Source: Mustelus asterias (taxonomy: Eukaryota). From it: a stretch of 64,000 bases of DNA. The notes beneath the pieces are model-generated. The model searched no databases. It saw nothing but the letters and a program-made list of their open reading frames with translations, and was not told where the DNA came from. Made by a program: the position numbers and the translations under genes. Positions 945 to 61,909 of the stretch are shown here, piece by piece; position 1 is the stretch's first letter, and every line of letters starts with the position of its first letter. The DNA is taken from contig NC_135806.1 of NCBI RefSeq assembly GCF_964213995.1, forward strand, positions 53,382,001 to 53,446,000, read 5' to 3'.

Positions 945-1481
945 TCAGTTGGTAATCCAGCATGGTTAGCATGCCTGAACAGCTCTACTGGAAACAGGAA
1001 AGAGCCTATAGTTCGCGTGGACAAGAGGTGCTTGGGAGTGGTTAGTACAGAATGGTTGTAATGCATTGCTAACAGAGCACAAAGTCTGGACTTTAGTGCA
1101 AGGGGGAATTTAGGAGCGTAGAGGGAGAAAATGCTGCTTTTTGCCTCCCATGCCTGCAGTGATTCATGCACAAATGAATGTACCTGTAATTTAAACTTAA
1201 ATCTATTTATAATAAAAGGCCAAAGTTGATTAAACATATACAGTCAGTCCCCATTTTAAGTTGCCTCAAAGTAATTTCACTTTAGTGTCATGGATTTAAT
1301 AGAGCCAGTAAATACACAACATAAAGCTGTTTGCTTTAGCATCGATGTGCACCAGCACTGATGGGCTTGTGTGACCCCGATCAGTGTCCATTTTTTAGCA
1401 GCCTCTCCTGTTCCCAGAAACAGTCACTCCCCAATTCTCTACCAGACTCTCCTTTTCACCACCCCTCTCCTGAGGCCTGGC

Positions 1482-2437
1482 TCCCGGAAGTCCATATCTG
1501 TGCCAGATGTGTGGAACTGCATCTCCTGAAGGATCGTGTAAGGGAGCTGGAGCTGAGGCTCGATGAACTCAGTTTAGTTAGGGAAAATGAGAGAGTCATA
1601 GATAAAAGTTATAGTCAGGTAGTGACACCAGGGTCTCGGAAGGAAGACACGTGGGTCACGGTTAGGAGGGGTAATAGTCAGAAGGGTGATGTGCCAGAAA
1701 GCACCCCAGTGGCAGTCTCCCATAAGAGAAAGGGATGGGCAACAGATGGGAGAAGGGAAGGGAGTGAGCAGTCTGTGGAGGGATCCCCTGTGGTTGTCCC
1801 CCTCCACAATAGGTATATTGTTTTGGATTCTGTGGAGGGGGATGACCCTCCAGGGGTAAGCCACGAGGACCAGATCGCCTCCACGGAGACAGGCTCAGGG
1901 GTCCGGAAGGGAAAGAAGGGGTTTAGGAGAGCGATAGTTGTGGGGGACGCAATAGTTAGAGGCACGGACAGGCGCTTCTGTGGGACTGAACGAGAATCCA
2001 GGATGGTAGTCTGCCTCCCTGGTGCCGGGGTACTGGATGTCTCCGAGGGGGTAGGAAGCATATTTAAAAAGGAAGGTAGTCAAACGGATGTGATTGTACA
2101 CATTGGGGGAAATGATGTAGGTAGGAAGAGCAGGGGGGTCATACGAGAGAAATTCAGGGAGTTGGGTGCTAGGCTAAAAAGTAAGACCTCCAGTGTAGCA
2201 ATCTCTGGACTGCTCCCGGTGCCTAGTGCAAGTGAGGCTCGGAACAGGGAGATTCTACAGTTGAACGCGTGGCTAAAGGACTGGTGCAAGAGGGAGGGTT
2301 TTAAATTCATAGATAACTGGGAAATCTTCAAGTCAGGATGGCAACTGTACAGAAAGGATGGGTTACACCTTAACTGGAAGGGAGCAAATATCCTGGCTGG
2401 GAGTTTTGCTCGAGTGTTTCGGCAGGATTTAAACTAG
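1482..2437 (+). CDS. CR1 ORF1: CxxC/leucine zipper plus SGNH esterase-like domain
   Basis: ICARC..LELRLDEL coiled coil; SGNH blocks GDAIVRG, HIGGND and DGLH. The ORF-track N-terminus (1361-1481) is probably flanking DNA. Confidence 0.85.
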
Positions 2438-5355
2438 TGTGGCAGGGGGGTGGGGAACAAAACAGGAGGTCAGAAAATACTGAGGCTGGGGTCGAGCTGG
2501 GGGCCAGGGCAAGGCTAGCTAAGAAGAGGAGCACTCTGGAGGAGGAGGACCTGACTGGGCCTGGAGGTCTGGAGTGCATCTGCTTCAATGCGAGGAGTGT
2601 AACGGGTAAAACAGACGAACTTAGGGCCTTAATGCTTGTGCGGAATTTGGATGTGGTTGCGGTGACGGAAACTTGGTTAAAAGGACAGGACTGGCAGCTG
2701 AATATTCCGGGGTATCAGTGTTTTAGGCGAGACAGAGGAGGGGCTAAAAAAGGTGGGGGAGTAGCGATATTAGTTAAGGAGCATATTACCGCGGTGCAGA
2801 GGGTAGACAACTTAGAGGGGTCATGTACTGAGTCGCTGTGGGTGGAACTCAGAAACAGGAAGGGTGCAGTCACTATGCTGGGGGTGTACTACAGGCCACC
2901 CAACAGCCCACGGGAAGTGGAGGAAAGGATATGTCAGGAGATTCTGGATAGGTGCAGAAAAAATAGGGTTGTTGTAGTGGGGGACTTTAATTTCCCTGGC
3001 ACAGACTGGAAAGTGCTTAGAGCTGGGGGACCGGACGGGGAGGAATTTGTAAAATGCGTACTGGAAGGTTCTTTGGAACAGTATGTAGATAGCCCGACTA
3101 GAGAGGGGGCTATACTGGACCTAGTTCTGGGAAATGAGCCCGGTCAGGTCGTCAAAGTTTCGGTAGGGGAACATGTGGCAAATAGTGACCACAACTCTGT
3201 TAACTTTAGGATAGTAATGGACAAGGATGAGTGCTGTCCTACGGGCAGGGTGCTAAATTGGGGGAAGGCTGACTATAGCCGGATTAGGCAGGAATTGGTG
3301 GATGTTGATTGGGAGAGGATGTTCGAGGGTAAGTCCGCGTCTGGCATGTGGGAGTCTTTTAAGGAACTATTGATAAGGCTGCAGGATAGGCATGTGCCTG
3401 TAAAAAGGAAAGATAGGAAAGGTAGGATTCGAGAGCCGTGGATAACCAGGGAAATTGAGGATCTGATTAAAATGAAAAGGGAGGCGTACGTTAAGTCCAG
3501 GCAACTGAAAACAGATGGAGCTCTGGAGGAATACAGAGAGAGTAGGAAAGATCTCAAACGGGGAGTTAGAAGGGCAAAAAGAGGGCACGAGATGTTCTTG
3601 GCAGGCAGGATTAAGGAGAATCCTAAGGCATTCTATTCATACGTTAGGAACAAAAGAGTTGTCAGGGAGAAAATCGGACCTCTCAGGGACAAAGGAGGGG
3701 AATTATGCTTAGAACCCAAGGGAATAGGGGAGATCCTAAATGAATACTTTGCATCGGTATTCACGAAGGAGAGGGGCGTGTTAACCGGGAGTGTCTCGGA
3801 GGGAGGTGTTGACCCGTTAGAGAAAATCTCCATTACGAGAGAGGAAGTGTTAGGTTTTTTAGGGAACATTAAAACTGACAAAGCCCCAGGGCCTGATGGC
3901 ATCTATCCTCGACTGCTCAGGGAGACGAGAGAGGAAATTGCTGGGCCTCTGACGGAAATCTTTGTCGCTTCTTTGGACACGGGTGAGGTCCCTGAGGATT
4001 GGAGGATAGCGAATGTGGTCCCGTTGTTTAAGGAGGGTAGCAGGGATAACCCAGGAAATTATAGGCCGGTGAGCTTGACGTCCGTGGTAGGGAAGTTGTT
4101 GGAGAGGATTCTTAGAGACAGGATGTATGTGCATTTAGAACGGAACAATCTCATTAGTGACAGACAGCATGGTTTTGTAAGAGGGAGGTCGTGCCTTACA
4201 AATTTGGTGGAGTTGTTTGAGGAAGTGACAAAAACGGTTGATGAAGGAAGGGTCGTGGATGTCGTCTATATGGATTTCAGTAAGGCATTTGACAAAGTCC
4301 CACATGGCAGGTTGGTTAAGAAGGTTAAGGCTCATGGGATACAAGAAGTGGCTCGATGGGTGGAGAACTGGCTTGGCCATAGGAGACAGAGGGTAGTGGT
4401 CGAAGGGTCTTTTTCCGGCTGGAGGTCTGTGACCAGTGGTGTTCCGCAGGGCTCTGTACTGGGACCTCTGCTATTTGTGATATATATAAATGATTTGGAA
4501 GAAGGTGTAACTGGTGTAATCAGCAAGTTTGCGGATGACACAAAGATGGCTGGAATTGCGGATAGCGAAGAGCATTGTCGGGCAATACAGCAGGATATAG
4601 ATAGGCTGGAAAATTGGGCGAAGAGGTGGCAGATGGAATTTAATCCGGATAAATGCGAAGTGATGCATTTTGGAAGAAATAATGTAGGGAGGAGTTATGC
4701 AATAAATGGCAGAGTCATCAGGAGTATAGAAACACAGAGGGACCTAGGTGTGCAAGTCCACAAATCCTTGAAGGTGGCAACACAAGTGGAGAAGGTGGTG
4801 AAGAAGGCATATGGTATGCTTGCCTTTATAGGACGGGGTGTAGAGTATAAAAGCTGGAGTCTGATGATGCAGCTGTATAGAACGCCGGTTAGGCCGCATT
4901 TGGAGTACTGCGTCCAGTTCTGGTCGCCGCACTACCAGAAGGACGTGGAGGCATTGGAGAGAGTGCAGAGAAGGTTTACCAGGATGTTGCCTGGTATGGA
5001 GGGTCTTAGCTATGAGGAGAGATTGGGTAGACTGGGGTTGTTCTCCTTGGAAAGACGGAGAATGAGGGGAGATCTGATAGAGGTGTACAAGATTATGAAG
5101 GGTATAGATAGGGTGAACAGTGGGAAGCTTTTTCCCAGGTCGGAGGTGACGATCACGAGGGGTCACGGGCTCAAGCTGAGAGGGGCGAAGTATAACTCAG
5201 ACATCAGAGGGACGTTTTTTACACAGAGGGTGGTGGGGGCCTGGAATGCGCTGCCAAGTAAGGTGGTGGAGGCAGGCACGCTGACATCGTTTAAGACTTA
5301 CCTGGATAGTCACATGAGCAGCCTGGGAATGGAGGGATACAAACGATTGGTCTAG
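2437..5355 (+). CDS. CR1 ORF2: APE endonuclease plus reverse transcriptase (972 aa open)
   Basis: CFNARS, ETW, GDFN and SDH endonuclease motifs; NYRPVSL, DFSKAFD, GVPQGSVLGP and FADD RT motifs. Confidence 0.95.
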   Translation: MWQGGGEQNRRSENTEAGVELGARARLAKKRSTLEEEDLTGPGGLECICFNARSVTGKTDELRALMLVRNLDVVAVTETWLKGQDWQLNIPGYQCFRRDRGGAKKGGGVAILVKEHITAVQRVDNLEGSCTESLWVELRNRKGAVTMLGVYYRPPNSPREVEERICQEILDRCRKNRVVVVGDFNFPGTDWKVLRAGGPDGEEFVKCVLEGSLEQYVDSPTREGAILDLVLGNEPGQVVKVSVGEHVANSDHNSVNFRIVMDKDECCPTGRVLNWGKADYSRIRQELVDVDWERMFEGKSASGMWESFKELLIRLQDRHVPVKRKDRKGRIREPWITREIEDLIKMKREAYVKSRQLKTDGALEEYRESRKDLKRGVRRAKRGHEMFLAGRIKENPKAFYSYVRNKRVVREKIGPLRDKGGELCLEPKGIGEILNEYFASVFTKERGVLTGSVSEGGVDPLEKISITREEVLGFLGNIKTDKAPGPDGIYPRLLRETREEIAGPLTEIFVASLDTGEVPEDWRIANVVPLFKEGSRDNPGNYRPVSLTSVVGKLLERILRDRMYVHLERNNLISDRQHGFVRGRSCLTNLVELFEEVTKTVDEGRVVDVVYMDFSKAFDKVPHGRLVKKVKAHGIQEVARWVENWLGHRRQRVVVEGSFSGWRSVTSGVPQGSVLGPLLFVIYINDLEEGVTGVISKFADDTKMAGIADSEEHCRAIQQDIDRLENWAKRWQMEFNPDKCEVMHFGRNNVGRSYAINGRVIRSIETQRDLGVQVHKSLKVATQVEKVVKKAYGMLAFIGRGVEYKSWSLMMQLYRTPVRPHLEYCVQFWSPHYQKDVEALERVQRRFTRMLPGMEGLSYEERLGRLGLFSLERRRMRGDLIEVYKIMKGIDRVNSGKLFPRSEVTITRGHGLKLRGAKYNSDIRGTFFTQRVVGAWNALPSKVVEAGTLTSFKTYLDSHMSSLGMEGYKRLV

Positions 5356-13494: not shown

Positions 13495-16400
13495 GGGATG
13501 CAAAGGTAGTAATCTCGGGATTGCTGCCTGTGCCGCGGGAGAGTGAGAACAGGAATCGGTGGAGAATGAATGCGTGGCTGAGGGACTGGAGCAAGGGACA
13601 AGGATTTGGGTACTTGGATCATTGGGACCTCTTTAGGGGCAGGTGTGACCTGTTTAAAAAAGACGGGTGGCACTTGAATCCCAGGGGGACCAATATCCTG
13701 GCGGGAAGGTTGGCTAAGGCTACTGGAGAGACTTTAAACTAGAAAGGTTGGGGGGAGGGAATCGAAATGAGGGGACTGAGAGCGAGGAGGTTAGCTCGCA
13801 AATAGATAAGGAATGTAGACAGGGTAAGAGGGAGGTTAGACGAGTGATGGAGAAGGGAAGTGCTCAGGCTGAAGGTCTGAGATGTGTCTATTTTAATGCC
13901 AGGAGTGTAGTGAATAAAGTGGATGAGCTTAGAGCGTGGATTGCTGCTTCGAATTGTGATGTGGTGGCCATTACGGAGACTTGGATGTCTCAGGGACAGG
14001 ACTGGGTGCTTCAGGTGCCGGGTTTTAGATGTTTCAGGAAGGACAGGGAGGGAGGCAAGAGAGGGGAGGGGAGTGGCACTGTTGATCAGGGATAGTGTCA
14101 CGGCTGTAGAGAAGGTGGACGCCGTGGAGGGATTGACTACGGAGTCTCTGTGGGTGGAGGTTAGGAACAGGAAGGGGTCGGTAACTTTGCTGGGTGTTTT
14201 CTATAGGCCGCCCAATAGTAACAGAGATGTTGAGGAGCAGATGGGGAAACAGATCCTGGAGAGATGTAGGAATAACAGAGTTGTCGTGATGGGAGATTTT
14301 AATTTCCCAAACATAGATTGGAATATCCCTAGGGCTAGGGGTTTGGATGGAGAGGAGTTTGTTAGGTGTGTCCAGGAGAGTTTCCTGACACAGTATGTGG
14401 ATAAGCCTACTAGAGGAGAGGCTGTACTTGATCTGGTGCTGGCTAATGAACCTGGACAGGTGGAGGATCTCTCGGTGGGTGAGCATCTTGGGGATAGCGA
14501 TCATAATTCTATCTCCTTCACGATAGCATTGGAAAGAGATAGGATCAGGCAGGCTAGGAAAGTGTTTCTCTGGAGTAAAGGGAAATACAGTGTCATCAGG
14601 GAGGAAATTAGACGGGTAAATTGGAAGGAGGCATTCTTGGGGAAAAGTACCGAAGGAAAGTGGAGGATTTTCAAGGAATGTTTGTCTGGAGCTCTGCATG
14701 ACAACGTTCCGATGAGACAGGGGGGTGTTGGTAGGGTACGGGAACCGTGGTGCGCGAAGGTTGTGATGAACCTGGTGAATAAGAAAAGAGAGGCGTACAG
14801 AAGGTTCAGAGAGCTAGGAGGTGTTAAGGATTTAGAGGAGTATACGGGATGTAGGAAGGAGCTTAAGAAGGAAATTAGGAGAGCGAGAAGGGGTCATGAG
14901 AAGACCTTGGCGGGTAAGATTAAGGAGAATCCCAAGGCTTTCTACAAATATGTCAAGAGTAAAAGGATGAGATGTGAAGGCATAGGACCCCTAAAAGGTG
15001 AAGGGGAAAAAGTTTGTGCGGAACCGTTAGAAATGGCGGAGGTGCTTAATGAATACTTTACCTCGGTATTCACAGTGGAAAGGGATCTGGGTGGTTGTAC
15101 TGCTGGTTTGCGGTGGACAGAAAGGATCGAGCATGTGGACATAAAGAAAGAGGATGTGTTGGAACTATTGAATGGCATCAAGGTTGGTAAGTCGCCGGGA
15201 CCGGATGGGATGTACCCCAGGTTACTGTGGGAGGCGAGGGAGGAGATTGCGGAGCCTTTGGCGATGATCTTTGCATCGTCGATGGAGACGGGAGAGGTTC
15301 CGGAGGATTGCAGATGTGGTCCCTATATTCAAGAAAGGGAACAGGGACAGCCCGGGAAATTACCGACCGGTGAGTCTAACCTCAGTGGTTGGTAAGTTGA
15401 TGGAGAGGATCCTGAGAGACAGGATTTATGATCATCTAGAGAAGTTTAGTATGATCAAAAGTAGTCAGCACGGCTTTGTCAAGGGCAGGTCGTGCCTTAC
15501 GAGCCTGGTTGAGTTCTTTGAAAATGTGACCAAACACATTGACGAAGGAAGAGCGGTGGATGTGGTCTATATGGACTTCAGCAAGGCGTTCGATAAGGTC
15601 CCCCATGCAAGACTTCTTGAGAAAGTGAGAGGGCATGGGATCCCAGGGGCTGTTGCCTTGTGGATCCAGAACTGGCTTGCCTGCAGAAAGCAGAGAGTGG
15701 CTGTGGAGGGGTCTTTCTCTGCATGGAGGTCAGTGACCAGTGGAGTGCCCCAGGGATCTGTTCTGGGACCCTTGCTGTTTGTCATTTTCATAAATGACCT
15801 GGATGAGGAAGTGGAGGGATGGGTTGGTAAGTTTGCTGACGACACCAAGGTAGGTGGTGTTGTGGATAGTTTGGAGGGATGTCAGAAGTTGCAGCGAGAC
15901 ATAGATAGAATGCAAGACTGGGCGGAGAAGTGGCAGATGGACTTCAACCCGGATAAGTGTGTAGTGATCCATTTTGGCAGATCCAATGGGATGAAGCAGC
16001 AATATAATATGAAGGGTACCATTCTTAGCAGTGTAGAGGATCAGAAGGACCTTGGGATCTGGGTCCATAGGACTCTTAAATCGGCCTCGCAGGTGGAGGA
16101 TGCGGTCAAGAAGGCGTACGGCGTACTGGCCTTCATTAATCGAGAGATTGAGTTTAGGAGTCGGGAGATAATGCTGCAGCTTTATAGGACCCTGGTTAGA
16201 CCCCACTTGGAGTACTGCGCGCAGTTCTGGTCACCTCATTACAGGAAAGATGTTGAAGCCATTGAAAGGGTGCAGAGGAGATTTACAAGGATGTTGCCTG
16301 GATTGGGGGGCATGCCTTATGAGGATAGGTTGAGGGAGCTTGGTCTCTTCTCCCTGGAGAGACGAAGGATGAGAGGTGACCTGATAGAGGTTTACAAGAT

Positions 16401-16732
16401 GTTGAGAGGTCTGGATAGGGTAGACTCTCAGAGGCTATTTCCAAGGGCTGAAATGGTTGCTACGAGAGGACACAGGTTTAAGGTGCTGGGGGGTAGGTAC
16501 AGAGGAGATGTCAGGGGTAAGTTTTTCACTCAGAGGGTGGTGGGTGAGTGGAATCGGCTGACGTCGGTGGTGGTGGAGGCAAACTCGTTGGGGTCTTTTA
16601 AGAGACTTCTGGATGAGTACATGGGATTTAATGGGATTGAGGGCTATATATAGGCCTAGAGGTAGGGATATGATCAGCGCAACTTGTGGGCCGAAGGGCC
16701 CGTTTGTGCTGTGGCTTTCTATGTTCTATGTT
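13495..16732 (+). mobile_element. CR1 LINE (second family): end of ORF1 plus ORF2 with two frameshifts
   Basis: ORF1 end (ISGLLPV..DGWHLN..TLN*). ORF2 is split over 13748-14095, 13923-15395 and 15271-16653. FADD motif; ttctatg tail repeats. Confidence 0.92.
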
Positions 16733-33368: not shown

Positions 33369-33597
33369 ATTATTAAAAAAAATTAATTCTAAATAGGAAG
33401 GGTGTGTCATGAGAAAAACTTTCTATACAAATGCAGAGCTCTTCAATTCAAGCTTTATCCAAGATCTCATGTCTCCACTTACTTTTAAATGACGACTCTC
33501 GTTTAGGAACAGACATTTGATACACCCTGACCGATCAGTGGGTAAATACATCACACAGCTAATTGAGTCCTTCAGGCCACCTTTCACTCTCCGTTCC

Positions 33598-36127
33598 AGC
33601 GCTGGTGATAGAGCGTTCATCAAGTCAGAGGTGCGACGTCTCCTGGGGGAGGGGATCATTGAGGCCAGTACCAGTCCCTGGAGAGCCCAAGTGGTGGGTG
33701 TCAAGACTGGGGAGAAACTTTGCATGGCCATGGACTACAGTCAGACCATCAACCGATACACGCAACTGGACGCGTATCCCCTTCCCCGCATATCTGACAT
33801 GGTCAATCAGATTGCGCAATATCGGGTGTTCTCCACCATTGATTTGAAGTCTGCATACCACCAGCTCCATATCGGCCCGGAAGACTGCCAATACACTGCC
33901 TTCGAGGCGGATGGCCGTCTCTACCACTTCCTTCGGGTCCCCTTCGGCGTCACCAGCGGGGTCTCGGTTTTCCAGCGTGAGATGGACCGAATGGTGGACC
34001 AGAACGGGCTGCGGGCCACCTTCCCGTACCTGGATAATGTCACCATCTGCGGCCACGATCAGCAGAACCACGACGCCAACCTCCAAAAGTTCCTCCACAC
34101 TGCGGCACTCCTTAACCTGACCTACAATAAGGAGTAGTGTGTATTCCGTACGCGCCGCCTCGTCATCCTTGGTTGTGTTGTGGAGAACAGGGTCATCAGC
34201 CCTGACCCCGACTGCATGCGTCCCCTCCTGGAACTTCCCCTCCCCACCACCCTCAAAGTGCTGAGGAGATGCCTCGGCTTCTTCTCATACTACGCCCAGT
34301 GGGTCCCCAATTATGCGGACAAAGCCCGTCCGCTCATCAAATCCACATCTTTTCCCCTAGCGGTGGAGGCCCGGCTGGCCTTTGACCGCATCAAAGCGGA
34401 TATCGCGAAGGCCACGATGCACGCCGTAGACGAATCCACCCCATTCCAGGTGGAGAGCGATGCGTCTGACTTTGCCCTAGCCGCCACTCTTAACCAGGCG
34501 GGCAGATCCGTGGCCGCTTTCCCGCACACCCTCCAGTGCCCTGAAATTCGACACTCCTCTGTCGAAAAAGAGGCACAAGCCATCGTGGAGGCGGTGCGGC
34601 ACTGGCGCCACTACTTAGCTGGCAAATGGTTCACCCTGCTCACGGACCAACGGTCCGTTGCCTTTATGTTCAGCAACGCGCAGCAGGACAAAATCAAGAA
34701 CGACAAAATTTTGAGGTGGAGGATCGAGCTCTCCACCTACAATTACGACATTTTATACCGGCCTGGGAAGCTCAATGAGCCCCCAGACGCCCTGTCCTGG
34801 GGGACCTGTGCCAGCGCGAACCTAGACCGGTTACAGACTCTCCACGATGATCTCTGCCACCCGGGGGTGACCAGGTTCTTTCATTTCATCAAGGCCCGGA
34901 ACCTGCCCTATTCCGAGGAAGTCAGGTCTGTAACCAGGCACTGCCAAGTCTGCGCGGAGTGCAAGCTGCACTTCTACCGACCAGACAGAGCGCACCTCAT
35001 CAAAGCCACCCGCCCTTTCGAACGCCTGAGCGTAGACTTCAAAGGCCCCCTCCCCTCCTCTAACTGCAATGTCTACTTCCTCAAATGTTGTTGATGAGTA
35101 TTCGCAGTTCCCCTTTGCTATCCCCTGCCTGGATATGACCTCGGCCACGGTCATCAGGGCCCTGCACAGCCTCTTCACCCTGTTTGGTTTCCCCAGCTAT
35201 ATTCATAGCGACCAGGGGTCCTCTTTTATGAGTGACGAGCTGCGCCAGTACCTACTCTCCCAAAGGCATAGCCTCGAGAAGGACCACCAGCTCCAACCCC
35301 AGGGGGACGGACAGGTGGAGAGGGAGAATGCGACAGTCTGGAAGGCTGTTTTATTTGCTCTCCGGTTTAAGGGTGTTCCAGTCTCCCGCTGGCAAGAAGT
35401 CCTCCCTGATGCGCTACACTCAATTAGGTCACTACTGTGCACGGCTACCAACGCCACCCCGCATGAACGAATGTTTGTTTTCCCCAGGAAGTCCTCCTCG
35501 GGGACCTCACTACCATCATGGCTGACGTCCCCTGGCCCTGTCCTGCTCCGGAAGTACGTGCAGACCCATAAATCGGACCCCCTGGTCGAAACGGTCCGGC
35601 TCCTCCATGCCAATCCCCAATACGCCTATGTGGCACGCTCATTTAGCCCCAGTGTACGGCACGCCTGAGCCCCAGGAGCAGCCTCCACACACCCGGCAGT
35701 CTGAAGGCGCTATGGACGACACCACCGGTTATGGATTGGCGCCTGACTCATCACCGCGGCCTCCTGAACCGGCGCCACGGCTGACACTGCGGCGGTCGCA
35801 GCGGCAGATCAAGCCCCCGGAGAGACTGAACTTGTAACTTGAATCAGTAACTTGTGACTGTTGTTTCCACCACCTCGCCACCACTGAACTCTTTTTAAAC
35901 AGGGGGTGAATGTGGTGAACCACTGTAACAGTGTGTGTGGGATGTGACTGGGCACGCCCCTGCTGCCTTGGTCCGGGGCTCCGCCCTCCTCGGGGTATAA
36001 AGGTGGCTGCTCTCCGCCCCATTGCCTCAGTTCGAGTTGGCCATCGGTTTGGGAGTGCTTCTGTCCTTGTTAATAAAAGCCTGTTGTTCCGCAACCTCTC
36101 GTCTTTGCGTGCATCAATTTTGCATCA
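33598..36127 (+). mobile_element. 5'-truncated Gypsy element (RT-RH-IN, PPT, 3' LTR 35911-36127), disrupted
   Basis: pol is homologous to 58202-61267 (YLDN, SDASD, SVDFKG) with a stop at 34135 and frameshifts. PPT aaacagggggtgaa; LTR TGTGG...GCATCA; flanked by 48-bp direct repeats. Confidence 0.9.
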
Positions 36128-36514
36128 ATCACACAGCTAATCGAGTCCTTCAGGCCACCTTTCACTCTCCGTTCCTGGTCCTGCTTTCGAGTGAGCCAGC
36201 TTTTCATGACTGTCTGTATACAGAACTATTCCAACAACACTCAGATGGATGATGAGTTCAAAACTTCTTTTTCAGTCATCACAAAACCAGAACAGTACAT
36301 CAGTTCAGAATAGAAAATGCATTATAAAATTGTGGGGATGAATTTTTTAATTTAATGATATTGAATAGTGTATTCAATATTAGTAATATCACATACAATG
36401 ATTGAATATTCACTTTGCTACGAGTGTGACTTTTCTTCAAGATTTAACTCTGGAAATTGCCAGGGCACGCAAACACACAGCAGCTCAGTCTCCGCATTTG
36501 GAGGCAGTTAGTAT

Positions 36515-37095: not shown

Positions 37096-38311
37096 TGATG
37101 CGCGTCAATGAGCACATGGAATCAAGGCTTTGGTATTGAAGGCTTTAATACAGTAACAATGGAACTACTAACACGAATACACCAGTTCAGACTGAAGGGG
37201 TCCTGCCGGAGCAGGGGGTCTTATACCCTGCCACCGGAGGCGGGACCCCACTGGAATGTGCCACGATAACTCTCATAACAGGTAAACACCCTAACCCAAC
37301 AACATAGTACAACCCCCACAGTAATAACACCCTAGCCCAACAGTAACATGGTAACAAACCCCAGTGGTGAACCAACGATGGTTCACCACATTCACCCCTC
37401 CTTTAGGAACAAAAGGTGGCGGGGTGGACGAAAAACAGACAATAACAAAAAAAGTCACAGGATTCACAAGTCCAGACGGTCTGGAGGACCGCACCGACGC
37501 TGCGATCTCCTCAACACCGGTTGCGAAACCGGAGCAGGTGCCGATCTCTTCAACACCGGTTGCGAAAACGGAGCAGGTGCTTGTGGTGGCTCTCTTAACG
37601 TAATGTCTGGCTGTCCCCTCAAGGACTCCCGGGCCGGCCGGCCCTGGTGAGGCGATGGTGCAGGAGCTCATTGGCATAATCCTCTATGGTTTCGCCCGAC
37701 TGCCGACGTCGTGTAGCGAGGAGGTAACGAGCATGTATCTCGTTGGGTGGCATAATGTACCTATTCTTTAGGAGCTCGACGGCACCCTGGTAAGTGGGAA
37801 CTGCACGAATGGCTAGGTAAATCGTGTCGCTTACCCTCGCGTGGAGGACCTGGAGTCTATCACTGTCCGTAGTGATAGCTACCGAGGCTGCCAGGTAGTC
37901 CTCAAAGCACTTCCACCAATGGTCGAATGTGTTAGCTGCACCGACCGCACGTGGGTCCAGTGTCAGACGATCCGGTTTTAGGATCTGTTCCATACTCTCT
38001 GTTTACTGTATTAAATTGATGCGCGTCAATGAGCACATGGAATCAAGGCTTTGGTATTGAAGGCTTTAATACAGTAACAATGGAACTACTAACACGAATA
38101 CACCAGTTCAGACTGAAGGGGTCCTGCCGGAGCAGGGGGTCTTATACCCTGCCACCGGAGGCGGGACCCCACTGGAATGTGCCATGATAACACTTATAAC
38201 AGGTAAACACCCTAACCCAACAACATAGTACAACCCCCACAGTAATAACACCCTAGCCCAACAGTAACATGGTAACAAACCCCAGTGGTGAACCAACGAT
38301 GGTTCACCACA
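37096..38311 (-). mobile_element. Internally deleted, non-autonomous Gypsy element with two 295-bp LTRs
   Basis: LTRs 38017-38311 and 37096-37390 differ at about 3 positions. TSD GTTAC at 37091-37095 and 38312-38316. PPT present; gag N-terminus joined to the pol end. Confidence 0.95.
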
Positions 38312-42608: not shown

Positions 42609-44590
42609 ATAGAATCAGAGGTTTACAGCATGGAAACAGGCCCTTCGGCCCAACTTATCCATGCCGCACTTTTTTTGTTAATACCCCTAAGCTAATCCCA
42701 ATTGTCTGCATTTGGCCCACACCCCTCTATACCCATCGTACCCATGTAACTATCCAAATGCTTTTTAAAAAACAAAATTGTACCCGCCTCTACCACTACC
42801 TCTGGCAGCTTGTTCCAGACACTCACCACCCTGTGTGTGAAAAAATTGCCCCTCTGGACACTTTTGTATCTCTCCCCTCTCACCTTAAACCTATGCCCTC
42901 TAGTTTTAGACTCCCCTGCCTTTGGGAAAAGATATTGACTATCTAGCTGATCTGTGCCCCTCATTATTTTATAGACCTCTACAAGATCATCCCTCAGCCT
43001 CCTACGCTCCAGAGAAAAAAGTCCCAGTCTATCCAGCCTCTCCTTATAACTCAATCCATCAAGTCCCGGTAGCATCCTAGTAAATCTTTCCTGCACTCTT
43101 TCTAGTTTAATAATCTACTTTCTATAATAAGGTGACCAGAATTGCACACAGTATTCCAAGTGTGACTTTGCCAATGTCTTGTACAACTTCAACAAGACAT
43201 CCCAACTCCTGTATTCAATGTTCTGACCAATGAAACCAAGCATGCCTAATGCCTCCTTCACCACTCTGTCCACCTGTGACTCCACTTTCAAGGAGCTATG
43301 AACATGTACCCCTCGATCTCTTTGTTCTGTAACTCTCCCCAACGCTCTACCATTAACTGAGTAAGTCCTGCCCTGGTTCAATCTACCAAAATGCATCACC
43401 TCGCATTTGTCTAAATTAAACTCCATCTGCCATTCGTCAGCCCACTGGCCCAATTGATCAAGATCTTGTTGCAATTGGCGATAACTTTCTTCACTGTCCA
43501 CAATGCCACCAATCTTGATGTCATCTGCAAACTTACTAACCATGCCTCCTATATTCTCATCCAAATCATTAATATAAATGACAAATAACAGTGGACCCAG
43601 CACTGATCCCTGAGGCACACCGCTGGTCACAGGCCTCCAGTTTGAAAAACAACTCTCTACAACCACCCTCTGGCTTCTGTCAAGAAGCCAATTTTGTATC
43701 CAATTGGCTACCTCACCCTGGATCCCGTGAGATTTAACCTTATGCAACAACCTACCATGCAGTACCTTGTCAATGGCCTTGCTAAAGTCCATGTAGACAA
43801 CATCAACTGCACTGCCCTCATTTACCTTCTTGGTTACCCCTTCAAAAAACTCAATTAAATTTGTGAGACGTGATTTTCCACTCACAAAGCCATGCTGCCT
43901 GTCCCTAATCAGTCCTTGCATCTCTAAATGCCTGTAGATCCTGTCTCTCAAAATACCTTCCAACAATTTACCCACCACAGATGTGAGGCTCACTGGCCTG
44001 TAGTTCCCAGGCTTTTCCCTGTAGACCTTTTTAAACAAAGGCACAACATTTGCCACTCTCCAATCTTCAGGCACCTCACCCGTGACTATCGATGATTCAA
44101 TTATCTCAGCTAGGGGACCAGCAATTTCCTCCCTAGCCTCCCACAATGTCCTGGGATACACTTCATCAGGTCCCAGGGATTTATCTACCTTGATGCGCTT
44201 TAAATCTTCCAGCACCTCCTCCTCTGTAATATATACACTCCTCAAGACATCACTATTTATTTCCCCAAGTTCTCTAACATCCATGCTTTTCTCAACAGTA
44301 AATACTGATGAGAAATATTCATTTAGGATCTCACCGATCCCTTGTGGATCCACATATAGATGACCTTGTTGATCTTTAAGAGGCCCTACTCTCTTCTCTC
44401 CCTTGTTACTCTTTTGCCCTTTATGTATTTGTAGAAGCTCTTTGGATTCTCCTTTGCCTTATCTGCCAAAACAATCTCGTGTCCCCTTTTTGTCCTCCTG
44501 ATTTCTCACTTAACTCTACTCCTACACCCTCTATACTCTTCAAGGGATTCACTTGATCCCAGCTGCCTATGCATGTCTTGTGCCTCTTAC
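42609..44590 (-). mobile_element. CR1 LINE, 5'-truncated (RT part of ORF2)
   Basis: ORFs 43115-44353 and 42692-43096 with NYRPVSL, GVPQGSVLGP and FADD; CR1 tail at 42609-42660. Confidence 0.92.
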
Positions 44591-51726: not shown

Positions 51727-51950
51727 TGATGCACCATCAATTCACGAGAACTATGGCGAGTGTGAAATAAAACAGGCTTTTAATCACAAAGAACTGGAAC
51801 ACACCCTTGTAGCTAGCCTGATCCAGACTGAGGCAGAGGGGAGGAACCGTTACCTTTATACCTCGATCAGGTGGAAAGGGAAGAGTCTCAGGTCAGGCGC
51901 AGCAGGGGTGTGTCCAGGCATATAATACATAGTTACAGTGGGTCACCACA
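51727..51950 (-). mobile_element. Solo LTR of the same Gypsy group
   Basis: Minus strand TGTGGTGA...GCATCA with TATAAA and ATTAAAAGCC; 5-bp TSD GTCTT at 51722-51726 and 51951-51955. Confidence 0.85.
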
Positions 51951-56480: not shown

Positions 56481-57118
56481 TTTTAAAAAGCTTAAAACTT
56501 GAACTGTCGTCCTGAAGATTTATTCCCTTCAAGGCCCATCCAACTTCTTTCGGAATTCCAATCGAGAAGGTTACATTCACACACATTTTAAGAACAGAAG
56601 CCATGCACCAGCCGTGACCAACAATTACAAATCCCACCCAGAGATATTTCTACTTTGAGCAGTGTTGTGAAAGGCAGCAACTTATTCACTGGAAAACTCG
56701 ACAACATTACAGCATATGACACTGTTCCATTTACAAATGCAATTTATTTTGGCTTGTATCTGTTTACAACACCGTTACGGACAAGAGCGACAGGCAAACT
56801 GCACTGATTGCTTCTCACCACCCGTCCGTAAGCAGAAGCCGTTTTGTAATAATTTTAAGCACGCTTGGCATGGTTTTCCAATCCCTGTGTGAGAGAGATC
56901 TCATTTACTAATAGCCCACGGGAGACTCACGTTACGATTAATGCAGAAGATTAGTGTGGTGAACCATCGTTGGTTACCACTGGGGGTTGTTATTATGTTA
57001 CTGTTGGGCTAGGGTGTTGTTACTGTGGGGGTTGTACAATGTTGTTGGGTTAGGGTGTTTACCTGTTATAAGTGTTATCATGGCACATTCCAGTGGGGCC
57101 CCGCCTCCGGTGGCGAGG

Positions 57119-57200
57119 TATAAGACCCTCTGCTCCAGCAGGACCCCTTCAGTCTGAACTGGTGTATTCGTGTTAGTAGTTCCATTGTTACACAATAAAA
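57119..57200 (+). promoter_or_regulatory. LTR TATA box, initiator and poly(A) signal
   Basis: TATAAGA at 57119, TCAGTCT initiator at 57149-57155 (about 30 nt downstream), AATAAA at 57194-57199. Confidence 0.6.
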
Positions 57201-57295
57201 GCCTTCAATATCGAAGCCTTGGTTCCACGTGCTTGATTGTCGCGCATCAATTTTATTGTGTAACAGAAAACTCTCAGCTGTACAAAAAAAAGAGT

Positions 57296-58162
57296 ATGGA
57301 ACAGATCTTAAAACCAGATCGTCTGGCGCTGGACCCATGTGCGGTCGGTGCCGCTAACACCTTCGACCACTGGTGGAAGTGTTTCGAAGACTACCTGGCT
57401 GCCTCTGTAGCTATCACTACAGACAGTGACAAACTCCAAGTCCTCCATGCAAGGGTAAGCGACACGATTTATCTCACGATTCGTGCGGCTCCCACTTACC
57501 CGAGGGCCGTCGAGCTCCTGAAGAAACGATACACGAAACCACCCAACGAGATACACGCTCGTTACCTCCTCGCGACACGACGTCGGCAGTCGGGCGAAAC
57601 CATGGAGGACTACGCCAATGAGCTCCTGCAGCTTGCCAGGGGTTGCGATTGTAAAGACGTATCAGCCGAACAATATATGTACGACCTCGCCCGAGACGCG
57701 TTCGTAGCAGGGGTAGGGTCCTCGTACATCAGGCTTAAATTGCTGGAAAGGGGGAACCTCGACTTGACCCAAGCGATGGAGATGGCTGAGATGCTGGAAG
57801 CGGCGTCGAAAAGCTTGGCGCTGTACCCCGAGGACCACGTGCAGTCAACGTGGCAGGAGCAAGCTCAGCTCCCTCCTCGCCCCGCTAACCCGCGCTCCCA
57901 GATCGATCCAACGACGGCGGCAGCTCCAGGTGGCCAGCGATGCTATTTTTGTGGTGGGGCCAAGCATCCACGGCAACAGTGTCCGGCAAGAACGGCTATC
58001 TGCAGCCAGTGCGGTAAAAAAGGCCACTACGGTAAAGTCTGCAGGTCGAAGTCTAAAAACGGCAGTGCAGCTTGTAACCCTCCAGAACGGAGACAATCTC
58101 CTTCGGCGTCGCAGTACCCACGAGGTCCGACCACGTGCGAACCCAGGACGGCGCCATCGTGA
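57296..58162 (+). CDS. gag: Gag with two CCHC zinc knuckles
   Basis: ATG at 57296 (MEQILKPD, shared with the 37096 element); CYFCGGAKHPRQQC and CSQCGKKGHYGKVC. Confidence 0.92.
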   Translation: MEQILKPDRLALDPCAVGAANTFDHWWKCFEDYLAASVAITTDSDKLQVLHARVSDTIYLTIRAAPTYPRAVELLKKRYTKPPNEIHARYLLATRRRQSGETMEDYANELLQLARGCDCKDVSAEQYMYDLARDAFVAGVGSSYIRLKLLERGNLDLTQAMEMAEMLEAASKSLALYPEDHVQSTWQEQAQLPPRPANPRSQIDPTTAAAPGGQRCYFCGGAKHPRQQCPARTAICSQCGKKGHYGKVCRSKSKNGSAACNPPERRQSPSASQYPRGPTTCEPRTAPS

Positions 58163-61100
58163 CTGACGGAGGAGGAGGAAGACCACCAGGAGTCGCTGCG
58201 TTTGGCGCCCTCGCCCACGTGCGATTCATGGGGGCGGCCATCATGGTCCACGACGACTAGGAGCGACCAGCAGGGGTCCTCAGCATCAACATCGGCAGCA
58301 TGCAGTGACGCCCAGGGGCCAACGGTGGCGTCGATCTCCCTGGACCAGACTAAGCACCACAGGCTTGAGAATTCCATGATGGATATAAAGGTAAATGGTC
58401 GAACTGTGAATTGTCTGTTTGACAGTGGGAGCACCGAAAGTTTCATACACCCTGAAACTGCTAAACGGTGTGGACTCCGGGTTCTCCCTGCCAAGCAGAC
58501 AATTTCCATGGCATCACGGTCCCGGTCTGTACCGATCCAAGGACGATGTATGGTAACTCTTGAGGTACAGGGCACAATTTACGAGCAATACAGGCTCCTT
58601 GTGTTACCTCACCTTTGTGCGCCAATTCTCCTCGGACTAAATTTTATGGTCCACATGAAGAGTGTGATCCTACAGTACGGTGGGCCACTCCCTTCACTGG
58701 CAGTAGGGAATCAGCCGCAGCCTCCAAATTGCCCAAAGCGCCCCGCATGCAATCTTTCCACTCTGAAAATCACTACACCATCCCTCTTTAAGAATCTGGT
58801 ACCAGGCTGCAAGCCCATCGCTACTAAAAGTAGGCGTTACAGCGCTGAGGACCGGATCTTTATTAGATCTGAGGTTCAGCGGCTCCTCAAGGAAGGGATC
58901 ATACAGGCCAGTGCTAGTCCGTGGAGAGCGCAGGTCGTGGTAGTCAAAAGCGGGAACAAACCTCGGATGGTCATCGACTATAGTCAGACCATTAATCGTT
59001 ATACGCAGCTGGATGCGTATCCTCTCCCGCGCATTTCTGATATGGTCAATCAGATTGCGCAGTACCGAGTGTTCTCTACCATAGACCTTAAGTCCGCCTA
59101 CCATCAACTCCCCATCCGCCCAGAGGACCGACAATATACGGCTTTTGAGGCGGATGGTCGTCTATACCAATTCCTCAGGGTTCCATTTGGTGTCACCAAT
59201 GGGGTCTCGGTCTTCCAGCGTGCTATGGACCGAATGGTGGACCAGAACGGGTTGCGGGCTACCTTCCCGTACCTGGATAACGTCACCATCTGCGGCCATG
59301 ACCAGCAGGACCACGACACGAATCTCCAACACTTTCTGCGCACTGCATCTCGCCTGAACCTGACCTATAACAGGGAGAAGTGCGTATTCCGTACGCGCAG
59401 GTTAGCCATCCTCGGATACGTGGTGGAAAACGGGGTCATTGGCCCTGATCCAGACCGTATGCGCCCCCTTACTGAACTTCCCTTGCCCGCTAGCACGAAA
59501 GCACTGAGGAGATGCCTCGGATTCTTTTCGTACTATGCGCAGTGGGTCCCCAACTACGCGGACAAAGCTCGTCCGCTCATCAAGTCCACGACCTTCCCAC
59601 TTACGCCGGAGGCCCAATTGGTCTTCAAGGCTTTGAAAAGCGACATCTCGAAAGCCACGATGCACGCGGTGGATGAATCCATCCCTTTCCAGGTGGAGAG
59701 TGATGCATCTGATTTCGCCCTAGCCGCCACACTAAACCAGGCAGGCAGGCCCGTCGCGTTCTTTTCCCGCACCCTTCAAGGCCCAGAAATTCGGCACTCA
59801 GCGGTGGAGAAGGAGGCTCAGGCCATTGTGGAGGCAGTCAGACACTGGCGCCATTACCTGGCAGGGAAGCGGTTCACCCTGATCACGGATCAACGATCCG
59901 TGGCGTTTATGTTCAACACGCAGAGGGGCAAGATCAAGAACGATAAGATCTTGCGGTGGAGAATTGAGCTCTCCACCTATAATTACGATATTATGTATCG
60001 TCCAGGGAAGCTCAATGAGCCCTCGGATGCCCTCTCGCGCGGAACATGCGCCATCATGCAGGAGGACCGCTTGAAGGCCCTCCACAATGATCTGTGTCAT
60101 CCTGGAGTCACCAGACTCTACCATTTCGTCAAAGCCCGCAACCTGCCTTACTCGGTGGAGGATGTCAGGTCAGTGACGAGAAGCTGTCGGATTTGCGCAG
60201 AATGCAAACCACACTTTTATCGACCAGACCGGGCACAATTGGTCAAGGCCACTCGCCCTTTTGAGAGGCTGAGTGTGGATTTTAAGGGCCCCCTTCCCTC
60301 AACGGACCGGAACGTCTATTTCCTCAACATAATAGACGAGTACTCCCGGTTCCCGTTTGTTGTCCCCTGTGCGGACACGTCGACTGCCACCGTCATCAAG
60401 GCATTCAGTGAGCTTTTTACCCTGTTCGGGTACCCCTGCTACATTCATAGCGACAGGGGCTCGTCGTTCATGAGCAACGACTTGAGGCAATTCCTGCTCT
60501 CATTCGGGATTGCCTCTAGTAGAACCACGAGCTACAACCCTAGGGGTAACGGACAGGTGGAAAGGGAGAATGCTACAGTCTGGAAGGCTGTCCTACTGGC
60601 ACTGAAATCCAGGGGCCTTCCAGTCTCCCGTTGGCAGGAGGTCCTTCCAAATGCGCTCCATTCTATCCGCTCCCTCCTGTGTACGGCAACCAATGCTACT
60701 CCCCACGAGAGGATGTTCTCATTCCCTCGGAAGTCGTCCTCGGGGATCTCATTGCCAGCCTGGTTGACGTACCCAGGACCCGTCCTTCTGCGGCGCCATG
60801 TGAGGGCTCGCAGGTCCGACCCCTTGGTCGAACCGGTCCAACTCCTCCACGCCAACCCTCAGTATGCCTATGTGGCATATCCTGACGGGCGAGAGGACAC
60901 TGTCTCCATTAGAGACCTGGCGCCCGCAGGGGACGTAGCAACTCCTGTCGCTCCTATTCCCCCAGTCACGAATCCACTACTCCTCATTGCTTCCCCAGAC
61001 GTGGCGCGGTCAGCACCGGGACCAGTGCATAACAGTTCTACTCCCATGTACAGCTTGCCTGAGACTCGGAGATCGGCGCCACCACCGAAGGTTCCAGGAT

Positions 61101-61267
61101 CCCCTGCACCATCGCCTCACCAGGGCCAACCGGCCCGGGAGTCCTTGAGGGGACAGCCGGACGTTGTTTTGGAGAGAACGCCACCGCAAGCACCTGCTCC
61201 GGTTTCGCAACCGGTGTTGAGGAGATCACAGCGTCGGTGCGGTCCTCCAGACCGTCTGGACTTGTGA
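58163..61267 (+). CDS. pol: Pol (protease, RT, RNase H, integrase), in frame with gag
   Basis: LFDSGS; YPLP..DLKSAYHQ..PFG..YLDN; SDASD/EKE/TDQ; HHCC zinc finger and D,D,E core (SVDFKG, SDRG, ERE). Confidence 0.93.
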   Translation: MTEEEEDHQESLRLAPSPTCDSWGRPSWSTTTRSDQQGSSASTSAACSDAQGPTVASISLDQTKHHRLENSMMDIKVNGRTVNCLFDSGSTESFIHPETAKRCGLRVLPAKQTISMASRSRSVPIQGRCMVTLEVQGTIYEQYRLLVLPHLCAPILLGLNFMVHMKSVILQYGGPLPSLAVGNQPQPPNCPKRPACNLSTLKITTPSLFKNLVPGCKPIATKSRRYSAEDRIFIRSEVQRLLKEGIIQASASPWRAQVVVVKSGNKPRMVIDYSQTINRYTQLDAYPLPRISDMVNQIAQYRVFSTIDLKSAYHQLPIRPEDRQYTAFEADGRLYQFLRVPFGVTNGVSVFQRAMDRMVDQNGLRATFPYLDNVTICGHDQQDHDTNLQHFLRTASRLNLTYNREKCVFRTRRLAILGYVVENGVIGPDPDRMRPLTELPLPASTKALRRCLGFFSYYAQWVPNYADKARPLIKSTTFPLTPEAQLVFKALKSDISKATMHAVDESIPFQVESDASDFALAATLNQAGRPVAFFSRTLQGPEIRHSAVEKEAQAIVEAVRHWRHYLAGKRFTLITDQRSVAFMFNTQRGKIKNDKILRWRIELSTYNYDIMYRPGKLNEPSDALSRGTCAIMQEDRLKALHNDLCHPGVTRLYHFVKARNLPYSVEDVRSVTRSCRICAECKPHFYRPDRAQLVKATRPFERLSVDFKGPLPSTDRNVYFLNIIDEYSRFPFVVPCADTSTATVIKAFSELFTLFGYPCYIHSDRGSSFMSNDLRQFLLSFGIASSRTTSYNPRGNGQVERENATVWKAVLLALKSRGLPVSRWQEVLPNALHSIRSLLCTATNATPHERMFSFPRKSSSGISLPAWLTYPGPVLLRRHVRARRSDPLVEPVQLLHANPQYAYVAYPDGREDTVSIRDLAPAGDVATPVAPIPPVTNPLLLIASPDVARSAPGPVHNSSTPMYSLPETRRSAPPPKVPGSPAPSPHQGQPARESLRGQPDVVLERTPPQAPAPVSQPVLRRSQRRCGPPDRLDL

Positions 61268-61909
61268 ATTCTGTATATATGACCTGTTTTTTTCTTGCAC
61301 CCCGCCGCCTTTTGTTTTTAAAGGAGGGGTGAATGTGGTGAACCATCGTTGGTTACCACTGGGGGTTGTTATTATGTTACTGTTGGGCTAGGGTGTTGTT
61401 ACTGTGGGGGTTGTACAATGTTGTTGGGTTAGGGTGTTTACCTGTTATAAGTGTTATCATGGCACATTCCAGTGGGGCCCCGCCTCCGGTGGCGAGGTAT
61501 AAGACCCTCTGCTCCGGCAGGACCCCTTCAGTCTGAACTGGTGTATTCGTGTTAGTAGTTCCATTGTTACACAATAAAAGCCTTCAATATCGAAGCCTTG
61601 GTTCCACGTGCTTGATTGTCGCGCATCAATTAGTTCACTTCACATTCGAAACCCAGGGGGAGAGACACACAATACTACACTGTGGAAGTGATAAAGGAGT
61701 TGTGCAACTGGTAACAGTACATGGGCCACAGAAATCACACTTAATTCGCATGATTTCCAGAGTCAGAATCGAAATGAGGGATTCTTTCACAGAGGTGTTT
61801 GAGTTCAGCTGGTTGAAGCCATTCTTTTTGTAGATGGTGCGGATACTGCCAATGAAGTAGGTACAAAGGGACTGGGCTGGTTCTGCAGGCAATGGTAGGA
61901 TATCTCCAA

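Follow-up and report, generated by a model that had tools for sequence, protein, structure and literature searches.

The window analysed here is a stretch of 64,000 nucleotides of the Mustelus asterias genome (NC_135806.1, positions 53,382,001 to 53,446,000 of the forward strand). A Ty3/Gypsy retrotransposon spans positions 56955-61628 of the window, and its two 295-nt LTRs differ at one base. The features of this element, and of the other LTRs of the window, are as follows.

56950..56954, + strand: target-site duplication ATTAG, with its second copy at 61629-61633
56955..57249, + strand: 5′ LTR, TG...CA, 295 nt, with one difference from the 3′ LTR
57119..57124, + strand: TATA-like box TATAAG, at a spacing that repeats in other families
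57149..57154, + strand: initiator-like TCAGTC, with a start predicted from the motif only at A 57151
57186..57200, + strand: putative self-primer segment, containing AATAAA at 57194-57199
57201..57203, + strand: GCC on the 3′ side of the predicted cut (RCY in 26 of 26 lineages)
57201..57250, + strand: loop consisting of the rest of R, U5 and one spacer A (24-72 nt across lineages)
57251..57265, + strand: primer binding site (PBS), exactly complementary to the segment
57296..58162, + strand: gag, with two zinc-knuckle-like motifs, terminating at an in-frame TGA
58163..61267, + strand: pol, encoding protease, reverse transcriptase (RT, motif YLDN), RNase H and integrase without a chromodomain
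61318..61333, + strand: polypurine tract (PPT), its final AA directly before the TG of the LTR
61334..61628, + strand: 3′ LTR, which carries the segment but has no PBS behind it
37096..38311, - strand: sister element, internally deleted, with LTRs at 38017-38311 and 37096-37390 and target-site duplication GTAAC
35911..36116, + strand: 3′ LTR of a third family, with a pol remnant at 33592-35635 (76% alike)
51727..51950, - strand: solo LTR of a fourth family, whose predicted PBS is present in 23 of 25 fetched 5′ junctions

The element at 56955-61628 has the order of domains (protease, RT, RNase H, integrase) that is characteristic of Ty3/Gypsy, along with TG...CA LTRs, a PPT and a short target duplication, and its best relative of solved structure is Ty3 Gag-Pol (E 9e-64). 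The in-frame TGA that terminates gag is present in one of 28 scorable copies (30 were taken), namely the copy in the window. When the 5′ regions of the main element and of its sister were used as queries, the best 40 matches of each were 99-100% identical, and therefore both families are young. The sister is a 1.2-kb internally deleted form with intact LTRs and an intact stem; a one-way search for chimeras of the main and sister families returned no matches. Among 121 related proteins, the RT motif is YxDN in 94 and YxDD in 25 (two were unscored), and the stem described below accompanies both types; a literature search found no paper linking YLDN with a retrotransposon. The chromo family was not detected in seven pol-bearing proteins scanned at E 0.05, nor is a chromodomain among the domains listed for 120 relatives. 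Elsewhere in the window are a full-length CR1/L2-type LINE (1340-5355), of which ORF1 encodes a GDSL esterase, and LINE remnants at 13914-16653 and 43115-44458.

The 5′ LTR ends at 57249, and so the PBS begins behind one spacer A. Its 15 nucleotides, 57251-57265, are reverse-complementary without a mismatch to the poly(A)-signal segment of the LTR at 57186-57200; the chance of such a 15-mer match anywhere within the LTR is about 6e-8. This pairing, and the absence of a TGG-type tRNA PBS, had been noted in the initial annotation and were borne out by checking the sequence: TGG does not occur within 8 nt of the LTR end in any of the 194 stem-bearing loci collected in this study. In the sister element, as had also been claimed, the segment at 38065-38079 and the PBS at 38003-38015 (minus strand) differ from those of the main element by four substitutions on each side that compensate each other in all four cases, and the resulting stem has 13 contiguous pairs followed by a one-base bulge. 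The main element, its sister, the 3′ LTR at 35911-36116 and the solo LTR at 51727-51950 (minus strand) constitute the four LTR variants of the window, and the AAA-GCC string reported for all four is present in each, except that AAA is the end of the segment and does not follow it. The distance from PBS to ATG is merely 15-47 nt in most loci. The local stem has near-full occupancy in the modelled 5′ RNA, and the whole leader folds no better than shuffles (z -1.55).

The LTRs of the third and fourth families in the window have no PBS of their own and were used as blind tests. The PBS predicted from the third-family LTR was found in 5′ copies elsewhere in the genome. For the fourth family, 25 of 39 junctions were fetched; 23 carry the predicted PBS and two deviate from it by a U-G wobble. 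Directly behind the 3′ LTR of the third family, at 36117-36180, the sequence ATTTT is accompanied by a second copy of the LTR end and by pol sequence duplicated from about 33552, an arrangement that suggests a template jump close to a PBS.

Copies of seven families were collected from this genome with DNA and Gag queries, yielding 190 loci, of which 153 were kept because the Gag start was recognised by pattern; many of the 37 dropped were 3′ or solo LTRs. Proteins annotated from M. asterias have 100% matches in this genome. The stem score is at least 10 in 149 of the 153, compared with a 99th percentile of 9.9 for shuffles. In each of the seven families the PBS complements the segment of that family and is always one A behind CATCA. 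At one polymorphic pair of family 4, exact counts over the whole genome gave 947 and 742 concordant and 25 and 10 discordant junctions, a concordance of 98% (1689/1724) where independence predicts 51%, although these are not counts of independent events because the copies are related. With 140 further 5′ ends, concordance was found in 79 of 83 kept copies of family 4 (of 90) and in 98 of 99 kept copies of family 7 (of 100). The covariation first noticed between two elements thus held in more family members.

The pairing also extends to distant relatives. Of 80 metagenome loci, the 57 with a match starting at the Gag start were tested, many of them redundant, and the stem is present in 45, in the same register (CA, A, PBS), with Gag proteins 31-42% identical. 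Twenty-six representatives were chosen by the authors from the stem-bearing loci, ten from the M. asterias genome and sixteen from metagenomes. On average, 11.8 of 12 pairs form between a segment and its own PBS and 7.1 with the PBS of another representative, and 20 of 650 cross pairs reach 11. Three or four types of base pair occur at each of positions -5 to -12. The invariant parts are the spacer A (26/26), the segment end A[AG]A, and RCY immediately after it (26/26); the loop varies from 24 to 72 nt among lineages while the register to the CA of the LTR is constant. Proteins related to this lineage are named from rays, catsharks, corals, an anemone, a tunicate, a sea cucumber, a nematode and an ant; no relative was found in the viral contigs searched. 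A Gag tree of the lineages is poorly resolved, and one apparent member, L063, was rejected as a frameshift artefact. A 5-6 nt insert on the PBS side interrupts the stem of one metagenome lineage (L248, L249), and L210 and L268 have in common an internal mismatch at position -6. The pairing is lineage-wide, occurring in this genome and in distant metagenome relatives, and the initial proposal of self-priming with covariation is strongly supported far beyond the two elements from which it was made.

A further set of observations concerns palindromic insertions. Among 120 junctions drawn regardless of gag, five run past the PBS into an inverted leader, as fold-back products that cross from the segment to the PBS; of these, four are complete palindromes flanked by 5-bp duplications, and the fifth is longer. 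A separate targeted search gave 29 matches. Whole palindromes account for 20 of them and represent 18 distinct insertions, two of which had also been among the 120 junctions. In four matches the inverted arm is joined to the PPT and internal sequence; three are solo LTRs whose cut site holds an insert of minus-strand start sequence, and two are truncated copies. The layout of a palindrome is LTR, spacer A, PBS, then inverted leader and U3 up to the first base of the LTR; 19 of the 20 whole palindromes bear perfect 5-bp target duplications, and the arms of some carry linked alleles of two parental haplotypes. The palindromes L466, L490, L507, L553, L560 and L521-L547 are 400-610 nt long. Fold-back during host replication was rejected as a source, given that the arms end at the first base of the LTR while the flanks differ, and is also contradicted by the 5-bp duplications and the two-haplotype arms. 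The palindromes were made by integrase from products whose synthesis had switched between segment and PBS. They demonstrate the use of the segment-PBS pairing by RT and do not fix the 5′ end of the primer. An attempt to map the cap from the palindrome arms was negative, with none of the 29 stopping at the initiator and no clear enrichment of arm differences in the leader.

The stem end is locked to the CA of the LTR, which is the site required of the 3′ end of a primer, and there is no TGG site; therefore the PBS is read as a site of priming, and it is very probable that the primer is the element's own RNA. As to which part of the RNA, the reading preferred here, with confidence a little better than even, is that this Ty3/Gypsy element primes itself with a segment cut inside the 5′ copy of R, about 50 nt behind the predicted cap. 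A TATA box lies 82-84 nt before the segment end in nine of ten own-genome representatives and in the fourth family, and TCAGT lies 50-52 nt before it in seven of ten and in the fourth family, the spacings recurring across families despite unrelated leaders. This is canonical promoter spacing and would place the segment at +36 to +50. That position, given in the initial annotation, is supported by motif spacing in the own-genome families only: of the 16 metagenome lineages, seven have an Inr-like match, at distances from 17 to 129 nt, none has a TATA box, and no fixed spacing was seen.

The proposed mechanism is built on segment and PBS being exact complements in a fixed register, one base behind the CA of the LTR. 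The RNA would begin at 57151, the leader would fold back, and the end of the duplex would be cut between AAA and GCC, just after AAUAAAA, possibly by the RNase H of RT by analogy with Tf1. RT would then copy the 50-nt loop, 57201..57250, which is the predicted template for minus strong-stop DNA, and jump to the 3′ R through the 15-25 nt that separate the cut from the poly(A) site; by this jump, leader and segment would be inherited from the 3′ LTR. Copying of the primer by plus strong-stop DNA would rewrite the PBS to match the segment, keeping the two concordant. Retention of one terminal rA, as in HIV-1, would yield the end CA-AT, a counterpart of the AA-TG next to the PPT. A plus strand whose end lies in the PBS may sometimes anneal to a segment instead and give rise to the palindromic insertions, which a long capped primer would be expected to promote. 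Against the internal cut is the expectation that a capped primer of 50 nt would let plus-strand synthesis overshoot the PBS; we know of no stop signal or trimming step for such an overshoot. In addition, four runs of assembled contigs, one of them with Tn5 adapter ends, showed no transcript starts, ends or tails.

Inheritance of the segment bears on whether the primer might instead be the segment of the 3′ LTR, with the 3′ region of the RNA pairing with the PBS and being cut between AAA and GCC. The same sequences would pair, either within a circularised RNA or from one packaged RNA to another; minus strong-stop DNA would extend as far as the cap and use the leader for its transfer, over a longer homology. 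Junctions of PPT, U3, leader and segment followed by the minus-strand start exist (L519, L535, L537), although they can also arise by a plus-strand DNA end jumping to a PBS, and target duplications flank the solo LTRs that carry this insert at the cut site (L525, L536, L543). Such priming predicts that the segment is inherited with U5 and that breaks fall in the leader, and the data, with few events, lean the opposite way. The segment class is predicted by the leader in 128 of 131 copies and by U5 in 104 of 131, with U5 tied in 26. In family 7, three of 99 copies have the segment and PBS of one haplotype within the U5 and gag of the other, as rewriting of the PBS from the primer would predict; stepwise mutation would also explain these mosaics. 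The 3′ LTR was sought for 13 discordant or mosaic copies, two of which gave none: four discordant copies have mutations in the 5′ LTR only, three have a changed PBS, and three are concordant mosaics. The sole clear discordance in both LTRs, L370, has leader and segment of one type and U5 and PBS of the other in both, and so its break falls after the segment. Stepwise mutation with selection is another possible reading of these haplotype patterns, which argue weakly for the 5′ cut over 3′-end priming. The local stem, moreover, approaches full occupancy in the 5′ RNA model. Priming from the 3′ LTR is considered unlikely.

The position of the RNA start bears on whether priming might be of the ordinary Tf1 type, transcription starting at the first base of the segment and the first 12-16 nt serving as primer. 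The problem of overshoot would then be gone, the palindromes fit equally, and a G at -10 (21/26) or A at -11 (18/26) could mark the start; in L217 an Inr-like motif coincides with the start of the stem. The primer would be near the 11 nt given for Tf1 in PMC7175516. This version has against it the recurrence of TATA and initiator at set distances from the cut in own-genome families whose leaders are unrelated, and the tendency of stems to begin on pyrimidines and reach beyond any pyrimidine-purine (YR) start. By a heuristic that considers YR starts (other starts occur), pairing extends 5′ of the first such start in 20 of 24 stems, by 48 nt in total where 8-10 would be expected if the stem began at the cap. 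A start at the segment is considered improbable, in about the same measure as priming from the 3′ LTR.

The segment includes AATAAA or ATTAAA in 20 of 26 lineages, and in the fold model positions 57195-57200 are unpaired 0-11% of the time in the 5′ context compared with 25-93% in the 3′ LTR. That the stem does nothing except hide the 5′ poly(A) signal, with a host RNA fragment or a protein as primer, is nevertheless very unlikely: the stem persists in six of the 26 lineages, spread over three or more branches, whose segment has no hexamer, the register to CA is fixed while the loop varies in length, the U-G intermediates that a masking hairpin would tolerate number only 25 of 1724, and more than 20 unrelated PBS sequences could hardly be matched by a single host RNA. 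Hiding a signal needs neither the CA register nor the persistence of hexamer-less stems; because of those six lineages, priming and not masking appears to be the conserved job. The suggestion in the initial annotation that the stem masks the signal in the 5′ LTR only is matched by the folding predictions, and does not apply to the six stems that cover no hexamer. Masking is at best a second job of the stem, and in most lineages the priming stem would, according to the model, also conceal the 5′ signal. The poly(A) hairpin of HIV-1, a tRNA-primed virus, likewise hides AAUAAA in the 5′ copy, with both arms in the LTR; in the shark element, one arm is the PBS and is present at the 5′ end only.

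To our knowledge, self-priming has been proven at the bench for Tf1 of fission yeast only, where the primer is the 5′ end of the RNA. Tf1 and Tf2 of Schizosaccharomyces pombe, Tj1 of S. japonicus and the Tf1/sushi group in general resemble the shark element in the Ty3/Gypsy order of domains, the absence of a tRNA site and a PBS complementary to their own LTR. The primer of Tf1 is made by an RNase H cut after base 11 (PMC7175516), Tf1-type primers are the 5′ end of the RNA (PMC7175516, PMC4600332), and a single-stranded copy of the PBS remains at the 3′ end of about half of Tf1 cDNAs (PMC11042837). In contrast to what these accounts describe, the primer of the shark element is predicted at +36 to +50, usually overlapping the poly(A) signal; the element also differs from Tf1/sushi in having no chromodomain and, in the lineage, an RT motif that is mostly YxDN. 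Because it lacks a chromodomain and its primer position is probably different, the lineage is not filed as Tf1/sushi. Outside these groups, self-priming was predicted from complementarity between post-LTR sequence and 5′ LTR for plant Tcn1 (Gypsy) and TAR/Houba/Osr-1 (Copia), in that part of PMC6317226 which is available and which gives no position relative to the poly(A) signal. These are other lineages than that of the shark element, and the prediction points to more than one origin of self-priming.

Mag-lineage Gypsy elements (Mag, SURL) and unnamed animal clades (Cigr-1, MolGy) are short, have paired zinc knuckles and usually a single gag-pol frame. The shark element resembles them in these features; Mag elements are tRNA-primed, and a tRNA-complementary PBS was not found in the shark lineage (TGG in 0 of 194 loci). 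The available portions of PMC6238403 and five supplements contain no PBS data. Nor is the present arrangement described in the portions available of PMC3601003, PMC6934838, PMC7472051, PMC2871265, PMC6238403 and PMC4131045, or elsewhere in the literature searched, a scope that left out subscription papers and Repbase. In the way it works, the arrangement would be a variant of the self-priming known from Tf1. Repbase reportedly holds entries titled as self-primed Gypsy from frog and fish, which may be a precedent.

The fullest version of the internal-cut reading is that a widespread Gypsy lineage outside the chromoviruses invented self-priming independently, cutting internally after the poly(A) signal so that one stem both supplies a capped 50-nt primer and silences premature polyadenylation, with overshoot leaving LTR-to-LTR palindromes as fossils; this whole is plausible, and somewhat short of an even prospect. 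As short inverted-repeat insertions produced by the enzymes of a retrotransposon, the palindromes form a class that is likely to be misannotated as foldback DNA elements, and retrotransposons of the present kind will be overlooked or given wrong boundaries by annotation tools that depend on a tRNA PBS. If the internal cut is correct, a large animal lineage that primes from an internal segment would represent a second, independent solution to self-priming, one that tRNA fragments would not silence and in which the formation of the primer would be coupled to the choice of poly(A) site.
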